Shown here: positions 16,471 to 16,949 of the stretch, one piece after another | How positions within the stretch are numbered: the stretch's first letter is position 1 | Layout of the letters: each line of letters opens with the position of its first letter | Source: a virus | Lineage: Duplodnaviria > Heunggongvirae > Uroviricota > Caudoviricetes | Strand: one strand, 5' to 3' | DNA length: 21,877 bases | Virus record (IMG/VR): IMGVR_UViG_2695420643_000029 | Translations under genes and position numbers: made by a program | Notes under the pieces: model-generated | Seen by the model: the letters and a program-made list of their open reading frames with translations, nothing else | Told to the model about the DNA's origin: nothing | Databases searched by the model: none

Positions 16471-16484
16471 CACTTATTTTCCCT

Positions 16485-16510
16485 GGCTCGCTTTTGCGGG
16501 CCTTTTTTTT
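16485..16510 (+). terminator. Rho-independent terminator after tRNA-like element
   Basis: GGCTCGC-TTTT-GCGGGCC + T8. Confidence 0.75.
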
Positions 16511-16707
16511 AAATGTCTCACAATTCAGGCGGTTGACTGTTGTCTGGTTTGCGGGGAGTTTGTTAAAAGAAACTGGCATGGTGAATCCCCCTGTGCGGAG
16601 GGGCAATCAGCGAGTAGGTATATGGGATAATCGCGGATTCAGGTGCTGGTACTGAATTCACCGGGAGGCACCCGGCACCATGCAAGAAAAAGAATGTGCA
16701 TGCAAAC

Positions 16708-16735
16708 ATGCCCCTCTCCGGAGGGGCATTTTTTA
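16708..16735 (+). terminator. Rho-independent terminator
   Basis: GCCCCTC-TCCG-GAGGGGC + TTTTTT. Confidence 0.75.
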
Positions 16736-16861
16736 TGGGTAAAAAATGCCCGAATGGGTTCGGGCAATAGCATGAGATACTGATATTGTTGTGTTGTTAT
16801 CGTGTGGATTTTAACCAGGGTTTATCAGGCTGCGCAACTGCGTGGCCTTTTTTCATTTCTT

Positions 16862-16906
16862 GGGCTGTAGTCCCCGTGTGTCATTCAGGCTTCCGGACTA
16901 CAGCCC
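16862..16906 (+). other. Perfect 12-bp inverted repeat (GGGCTGTAGTCC ... GGACTACAGCCC) with 21-nt loop upstream of the esterase gene
   Basis: Read directly from sequence; no U-run follows. Confidence 0.6.
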
Positions 16907-16949
16907 ACTCCATATCTGATTTAATACACTATCCCGGCCGGGAGGAATA

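Follow-up and report, generated by a model that had tools for sequence, protein, structure and literature searches.

Positions 16471–16949 of the 21,877-nt Caudoviricetes sequence analysed here (IMG/VR record IMGVR_UViG_2695420643_000029; the whole stretch is called the window below) separate the region of the Q homologue and tRNA from a nanS-p-type esterase gene. Our analysis indicates with high confidence that this segment is a non-coding RNA module of the lambdoid prophages of Escherichia coli strains that are enterohaemorrhagic or make Shiga toxin (Stx), and that it lies at their late-promoter cargo ("moron") site. The proposed order from left to right is the terminator of a decayed tRNA cluster, an empty cargo junction (~16510/16511), a plus-strand small RNA (sRNA) gene of the STnc100/EcOnc27 family with its own terminator, a convergent minus-strand gene for AgvB that has a promoter and a terminator to itself, a third plus-strand terminator overlapping the AgvB promoter, and a stem-loop in the nanS-p leader (Table 1). 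In the Rfam scan the two sRNA genes are convergent, with their terminators back to back, and together they cover most of the segment. This is a conserved and already known sRNA gene pair, and Tree et al. (2014, Mol Cell; PMC4104026) have reported exactly such a layout.

The region 16200–17000 (801 nt compared) matches the chromosome of E. coli 2011C-4251 at 100% identity, and some 300 complete genomes of E. coli cover at least 80% of this 801-nt query. Apart from the DUF1133 (Q-position) and DUF6645 (nanS-p-type) genes on either side, the Prokaryotic Genome Annotation Pipeline (PGAP) has placed at the 2011C-4251 locus only a "tRNA-Met" and a partial "hypothetical protein" within STnc100.

Table 1. 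Features at and around 16471–16949, in window coordinates.
Feature	Position	Strand	Basis
Defective chimeric tRNA, ileZ 5′ part (anticodon CAU) and argO 3′ end	16394–16470	+	933W alignment, Rfam, ARAGORN
T1, intrinsic terminator closing the tRNA cluster	stem 16485–16502, T-run to 16510	+	−13.8 kcal/mol, z −3.9
Cargo ("moron") junction, empty	16510–16517	none	alignments to 933W, Stx1a phage and Sp10; T1 end (16510) abuts conserved block start (~16511)
Candidate sigma-70 promoter of STnc100-family RNA	−35 TTGTCT 16540–16545, 18-nt spacer, −10 TAAAAG 16564–16569	+	putative
STnc100-family sRNA gene (EcOnc27/sRNA103/PasD relatives)	16547–16740	+	Rfam RF02076
T2, intrinsic terminator, 3′ end of STnc100-family sRNA	stem 16708–16729, T-run to 16735	+	−18.4 kcal/mol
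AgvB (anti-GcvB anti-sRNA) gene	16802–16741	−	Rfam RF02702
AgvB terminator, GCCCGAA-TGGG-TTCGGGC hairpin	16766–16747, U-run 16746–16741	−	
Likely AgvB promoter	−10 TAAAAT 16813–16808, weak −35 TTGCGC 16837–16832	−	putative
T3, intrinsic terminator, AGGCTGCGCAACTGCGTGGCCT + TTTTT	16827–16853	+	−14.9 kcal/mol, z −4.4
nanS-p leader stem-loop, perfect 13-bp stem, 21-nt pyrimidine-rich loop	16861–16873/16895–16907	+	−28 kcal/mol, z −5.6, 0/200 shuffles as good
Shine-Dalgarno (SD) sequence GGGAGGA (16940–16946) and nanS-p-type esterase gene (ATG 16950)	16940–18896	+	Pfam DUF1737, SASA and DUF6645; PGAP coding sequence

The AgvB and STnc100-family genes

The minus-strand gene matched the AgvB model with 96.5 bits (gathering score 56) over model positions 1–62 of 62, and all 62 nucleotides are identical to the consensus. 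The copy at the AgvB1 locus in prophage Sp10 of E. coli O157:H7 Sakai has the same sequence (100% identity), and the window from ~16575 onward is nearly identical to that locus, with a handful of differences. Its 5′ variable region, CGAUAACAACACAACAAUAUC, includes CACAACA, the GcvB R1 target consensus, and its ~42-nt 3′ region, which ends in a Rho-independent terminator, is conserved relative to the AsxR and EcOnc03-type copies. The promoter proposed for AgvB is at a position that fits the 5′ end given by Rfam (16802), and ATTTTAACCAG is conserved in all four variable types of the anti-sRNA.

The 5′ 21 nt of AgvB were predicted to pair with nt 66–85 of MG1655 GcvB (−19.4 kcal/mol; 14 of 1000 shuffles were as good). 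No comparable GcvB pairing was predicted in the same duplex test for the variable regions of AsxR, the EcOnc03-like RNA or the fourth type. The test was limited to the AgvB 5′ region; full-length duplex prediction gave an unrealistic whole-molecule duplex. This fourth 5′-variable type of the AgvB/AsxR family (CGAUUAUAAAAAUGUAUAUC...), distinct from AgvB, AsxR and EcOnc03, was observed at 3269–3321 (minus strand) of IMG/VR locus L005 and in about 19 other IMG/VR loci, and it scores exactly at the AsxR gathering threshold. In four further loci (L249, L251, L276 and L284) STnc100, a T3-like terminator and the leader hairpin are kept while the AgvB-type gene is swapped for an unrelated sequence, GCGAATAATACC...AGTAATCAC, for which no Rfam match was found.

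AgvB corresponds to EcOnc01a/b of the Sakai prophages Sp10 and Sp17 (PMC4104026), and Table S2 of that study locates AgvB1 in Sp10. It binds Hfq, pairs with the GcvB R1 seed through the CACAACA target mimic and relieves DppA repression, and it confers a competitive advantage in bovine terminal rectal mucus (PMC4104026). Both AgvB and EcOnc27 were seen as RNAs in Sakai by northern blot and Hfq crosslinking (PMC4104026). The strand relation, the terminator, the mimic and the neighbours (an STnc100-family RNA upstream and nanS-p downstream) of the window copy are the same as those of AgvB in Sp10 and Sp17, and the order of Q homologue, tRNA, STnc100 (plus strand), AgvB (minus strand) and nanS-p is that of Sp10. 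The window differs from Sp10 in its strain (2011C-4251), in its empty cargo slot, where Sp10 has a TciA/TerB-like gene, in its Q protein (81% identical) and in its chimeric tRNA cluster.

The plus-strand gene matched the STnc100 model at full length (141.8 bits against a gathering score of 47; model positions 1–206), and the northern probe for EcOnc27 has its match in the 3′ part of the RNA. Like STnc100, EcOnc27 and PasD, the window copy has the long-range GCAUGGUG...CACCAUGC helix, the inner hairpins and the terminator, and like the rest of the family it lies directly after the position of stx or other cargo and is convergent with an anti-sRNA. The difference is that the window copy, like that of Sp10, lacks about 19–20 nt of the variable central part, and it scores 142 bits as against 208 in 933W. 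The STnc100 family was found upstream of nanS-p in 933W, in an Stx1a phage and in each of five further IMG/VR loci; it stands directly after stx2B in 933W and directly after stx1B in the Stx1a phage. A motif, TTGNYT...TGTTA(A/G)AA, 7–8 nt 5′ of GCATGG, is conserved across loci with unrelated sequence further upstream, and the candidate promoter in Table 1, of the form TTGNYT-18-TAAAAR, is placed there. Since only the tRNA terminator lies upstream of it, the STnc100-family RNA of the window cannot be a product of the 3′ untranslated region of a cargo mRNA.

Previous studies have described EcOnc27 of Sakai Sp5 as the plus-strand partner of AsxR (PMC4104026) and have equated EcOnc27 (sRNA103 in EDL933) with STnc100 (PMC12711010). 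STnc100 lies about 75 nt 3′ of stx2 (PMC12370729). It is related to the sRNA PasD of enteropathogenic E. coli, for which an arrangement of PasD, esterase, PasA/C, holin and lysozyme has been reported (bioRxiv 10.64898/2026.05.13.724894).

The cargo junction and the conserved block

Three-way alignment showed that the window from ~16515 to 16960 is homologous to the entire stxB-to-nanS-p intergenic region of 933W and the Stx1a phage. The stx2AB genes of 933W have the terminator that follows argO on one side and sequence homologous to the window from ~16515 onward on the other; the same homologous block is abutted by stx1AB in the Stx1a phage and by a TerB-like gene in Sakai Sp10. On the left, the alignment shows T1 to be the homologue of an element that is annotated in 933W (at L003 886–909) as "terminator upstream of the stx genes". 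Since the right flank matches the stxB–nanS-p intergenic region and T1 matches the terminator before stx, the insertion point is the junction at ~16510/16511. Here the tRNA-cluster terminator stands on the left and the STnc100 block on the right, the relatives have their cargo exactly at this place (stx2AB, stx1AB, a TerB-like gene set or a lipoprotein gene), and neither the sequence nor the list of open reading frames (ORFs) contains an ORF between T1 and the conserved block. The block begins upstream of the Rfam match to STnc100, at ~16511 (TTAAATGTCTCACAATTCAG...).

By these alignments, about nine-tenths of 16471–16949, from ~16515 onward, make up a conserved module, which is found in Stx phages too, downstream of stx. 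The earlier note on this DNA, which was made from the sequence alone, had read the ~480 bp as an empty slot. Its premise that stx lies between Q/tRNAs and nanS-p is borne out by 933W and the Stx1a phage, in an alignment with both Stx and stx-negative prophages, and the locus is indeed a toxin-less stx or "moron" locus. The slot itself, however, is only the junction, and the rest is the conserved module.

The gene order of 933W is Q, PR′/qut, terminators, ileZ-argN-argO, terminator, stx2AB, STnc100 (208 bits), AsxR on the opposite strand and L0105 (nanS-p). That of the Stx1a phage is stx1AB, STnc100, an AgvB/EcOnc03-like anti-sRNA and yjhS. Compared with the stx2AB locus of 933W and Sp5 (Q-PR′-tR′-ileZ argN argO-terminator-stx2AB-EcOnc27/AsxR-nanS-p-lysis genes), the window has a homologous gene order and homologous flanking non-coding blocks, and it joins directly the two flanks that stx separates in 933W, the post-tRNA terminator and the block after stx2B. 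It differs from 933W in having no stx, an anti-sRNA of AgvB rather than AsxR type, and an Sp10-like Q of the DUF1133 family.

Our IMG/VR survey covered 110 loci carrying the anti-sRNA terminator. The junction was empty in 16 of them, 15 had stx2 with AsxR and six had stx1 with an EcOnc03-like RNA; in the remaining loci the upstream sequence or cargo was of another kind, for example the TerB-like gene set, as in Sp10, or a lipoprotein gene. A scan of genome contigs with the 15-mer GGCTGCGCAACTGCG returned chance matches only, in unrelated and mostly non-enterobacterial genomes.

Immediately upstream of T1 lies the "tRNA-Met" of PGAP. Alignment to ileZ-argN-argO of 933W indicates that it is a chimera formed by recombination in the T-arm sequence shared by ileZ and argO, with argN and most of argO deleted. 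Its acceptor stem is unpaired because the 3′ acceptor strand comes from argO, and a G takes the place of U33 in the anticodon loop. ARAGORN did not find a tRNA here when run on the window, and the Rfam tRNA model gave only a partial match (16401–16460; model positions 7–64). The tRNA is very probably non-functional. One further E. coli genome match was inspected, and it likewise has a single tRNA-Met between Q and nanS-p.

Further Rfam sRNA matches were observed elsewhere in the prophage, at 1557–1735, 6584–7049 and 14009–14184. They are RalA (the antitoxin of RalR), a minus-strand cluster of C4 antisense RNA, isrK and DicF, and sok beside hokD.

The nanS-p leader stem-loop

A perfect 12-bp inverted repeat at 16862–16906, just upstream of the nanS-p SD, had been noticed before. 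The repeat is perfect, but it has 13 bp and extends over 16861–16907. It has no U-run on either strand and is therefore not a terminator. Among 42 distinct leaders of this kind, which comprise at least six sequence types, 40 form the stem-loop when folded to minimum energy. The share of paired stem cells was 92.5% in one alignment and 89.7% in another, as against 21–47% when the 3′ arm was slid. Compensatory double changes were found at three to four stem pairs, and one-sided changes giving G·U on the plus strand only occur, in some sequences, at 8 of 14 pairs. One variant (L301) forms 14 pairs, six of them G·U.

It might be argued that the 13-bp repeat acts as DNA, either as a protein-binding palindrome or as a recombination or cruciform site, for instance in regulating the divergent AgvB promoter. 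The palindrome of the window is perfect and lies about 60–105 bp upstream of the AgvB start, and symmetric double changes would keep a DNA palindrome as well as an RNA stem. The plus-strand G·U changes, however, are A·C on the other strand and break the DNA symmetry, and L301 with its six G·U pairs also speaks against a palindrome. Moreover, the spacer varies across types both in length (21–29 nt) and in sequence, and the hairpin is kept in loci where the AgvB-type promoter region has been replaced. We consider a DNA-level role improbable. The compensatory and one-sided G·U changes together favour a plus-strand RNA structure, and the RNA-level role that the earlier note had supposed for the hairpin is compatible with the covariation found in the aligned leaders.

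The hairpin is a minor conserved RNA structure that may be undescribed; no description of a nanS-p leader element was found in the literature searched. We tentatively raise a larger possibility, to which we give distinctly less than even chances: the stem-loop and T3 may form a cis-acting RNA element, so far undescribed, in the late transcript of nanS-p and the lysis genes, and this transcript, carrying the AgvB complement, may titrate AgvB. Such an element could protect the 5′ end that remains once the late RNA has been cleaved where it pairs with AgvB, or it could modulate translation through its pyrimidine-rich loop. On the strand opposite AgvB, 16787–16798 (plus strand) reads UGUUGUGUUGUU, which over its 12 nt is identical to the R1 seed of GcvB (GcvB nt 71–82), so late read-through transcripts would hold both the AgvB complement and a GcvB-like seed.

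Two other ideas about the hairpin were examined and gained no support. For masking of the nanS-p SD/AUG by the loop, as in a pseudoknot-like anti-SD, the test was negative: duplexes between the loop and the ribosome-binding site were no better than those of shuffled loops (z −0.3 to −1.6, some positive), and an apparent covariation, TGTCAT/ATGACA versus TGCCAT/ATGGCA, fails in several loci. The hairpin is not a dispersed repeat, as no further copies were found within the window. Separately, about 40 loci (the L247 group) were observed to have nanS-p with a wholly different AT-rich leader, without T3 and without the hairpin, and with STnc100 about 600 nt upstream.

Terminators, late transcription and the weight of the alternatives

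A GC-rich stem-loop with a U-run directly after it on the transcribed strand was taken as an intrinsic terminator. T1, T2 and T3 on the plus strand and the AgvB terminator on the minus strand are of this kind, with folding z-scores of −2.7 to −4.4. Six terminator-like sites were found in 15600–17600, as against 2.2 ± 1.4 in shuffles. All hairpins and terminators listed in the earlier note are present, at the same coordinates or 1–2 nt off, and its terminators at 16485–16510 and 16708–16735 were recovered by scan and folding. It had overlooked the third plus-strand terminator, the two sRNA genes, the minus-strand T-run of the GCCCGAA hairpin and the defective "tRNA". T3 is kept in nearly all relatives from IMG/VR as well as in Sp10, 933W and the Stx1a phage, and the −35 proposed for the divergent AgvB promoter falls within its stem-loop. 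T3 is probably a backstop against plus-strand read-through into nanS-p and the lysis (holin/endolysin) genes.

The note had proposed that stacked terminators make expression of nanS-p and the lysis genes strictly Q-dependent. Several plus-strand terminators do lie between the Q gene and nanS-p. Two of the stems are primarily the 3′ ends of small genes, however, and one of these faces the opposite strand, so that the terminators do not form a simple stack of barriers. The same material can be read as an empty toxin slot without gene products, whose hairpins serve only as terminators or cis-elements for this strict dependence. The absence of a cargo coding sequence, the three plus-strand terminators between tRNA and nanS-p and the position at the stx site all agree with such a slot. 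Retention of ~16515–16949 downstream of stx in both Stx1 and Stx2 phages does not, nor do the full-length matches to two curated sRNA families, and a terminator on the opposite strand cannot stop late transcription. As AgvB and EcOnc27 have moreover been detected as RNAs in Sakai, by northern blot and Hfq crosslinking, we judge an empty slot without gene products very unlikely.

The lack of a credible ORF in 16471–16949, also remarked on earlier, was confirmed. The longest ORFs have 44–54 aa, and no Pfam match was found for the two that were tested (16786–16950, plus strand; 16563–16709, minus strand). Indels of 1, 2, 7, 8 and 19 nt occur among homologues, and because they break the frame no reading frame is conserved; the alignment does not support a frameshifted conserved coding sequence. 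RefSeq has a partial "hypothetical protein" pseudogene at 16566–16709 (minus strand), wholly inside the STnc100 gene, and this protein family is probably spurious. A decayed protein-coding gene, for which this pseudogene, the presence of both ORFs in the program-made ORF list and the TAATG overlap of the 54-aa ORF (16786–16950) with nanS-p could be cited, can be dismissed, as neither ORF has a Pfam match, the frame is not preserved and the structured-RNA models fully explain the same bases.

A module of two sRNA genes remains our preferred reading, and several points weigh against it or against parts of it. Neither sRNA promoter was flagged by a simple consensus promoter scan. The promoter proposed for the STnc100-family RNA predicts a transcript of about 160–165 nt in the window and about 180 nt in 933W, as against 235/247 nt for EcOnc27 in northern blots; this suggests a start further upstream as an alternative. 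Transcription of both sRNAs in 2011C-4251 is presumed, on the ground that Sakai and 933W have identical sequence. Neither a late promoter nor a qut site belonging to the Q type of the window was located with confidence, and no qut was identified near 16183–16358. As for the leader, the commonest (933W-type) variant of the hairpin, which is perfect in the window and has a U·U mismatch in 933W, carries a 1×1 or 2×2 internal mismatch, and the covariation rests on few independent lineages.

The protein at the Q position is a DUF1133 protein with a weak Phage_antitermQ match and 81% identity to the "phage antiterminator" of Sp10. Within the 3′ end of its gene, a sigma-70-like promoter (TTGGCA-18-TATATT, 16183–16212) was the sole site flagged by the consensus scan, and an intrinsic terminator (16332–16358) follows about 140 nt downstream. 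Together they are a candidate for the late promoter with a tR′ short transcript, comparable to lambda 6S RNA or StxS. The Q homologue, the terminator at 16332–16358 and the further terminators before the lysis genes resemble lambda late control (PR′, qut, tR′ and Q, with 6S/StxS), but unlike in lambda, several terminators of the window belong to independent small genes and not to the late leader.

We propose that in the lysogen the three plus-strand terminators would keep transcription from the tRNA and sRNA promoters out of nanS-p and the lysis genes, with T1 ending transcripts from the tRNA promoter and T2 ending the sRNA. AgvB would be transcribed from its own promoter and sponge GcvB, as shown by others: its 5′ end, mimicking a GcvB target, would pair with the R1 seed of the host GcvB, and repression of dppA would thereby be relieved. 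The STnc100-family RNA would, again from the work of others, be an Hfq-associated sRNA with proposed but unsettled targets. Upon induction, Q-modified polymerase from the late promoter would pass T1, T2 and T3. In Stx2a strains nanS-p is reported to rise by 1–2.4 log on mitomycin C (PMC10462455), which is consistent with such passage of Q-modified polymerase. Within the plus-strand late transcript, the leader stem-loop most likely affects stability, processing or translation; this step is the weakest of the scheme and is a guess.

These results correct a natural misreading, as the ORF-free DNA beside the Shiga-toxin insertion site is a pair of sRNA genes. They also hold a lesson for annotation, since automated pipelines miss both sRNAs, put a spurious pseudo-coding sequence in STnc100 and name a broken chimeric tRNA "tRNA-Met". 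The leader hairpin is the only possibly new biology and is of modest interest for the tuning of late-gene and esterase expression; if the late transcript does titrate AgvB, then on induction it could, through its exact AgvB complement, switch off the anti-sRNA function. Through such sRNAs, as with AgvB against GcvB, prophages rewire the post-transcriptional control of their host, and the pair is present with or without the toxin.

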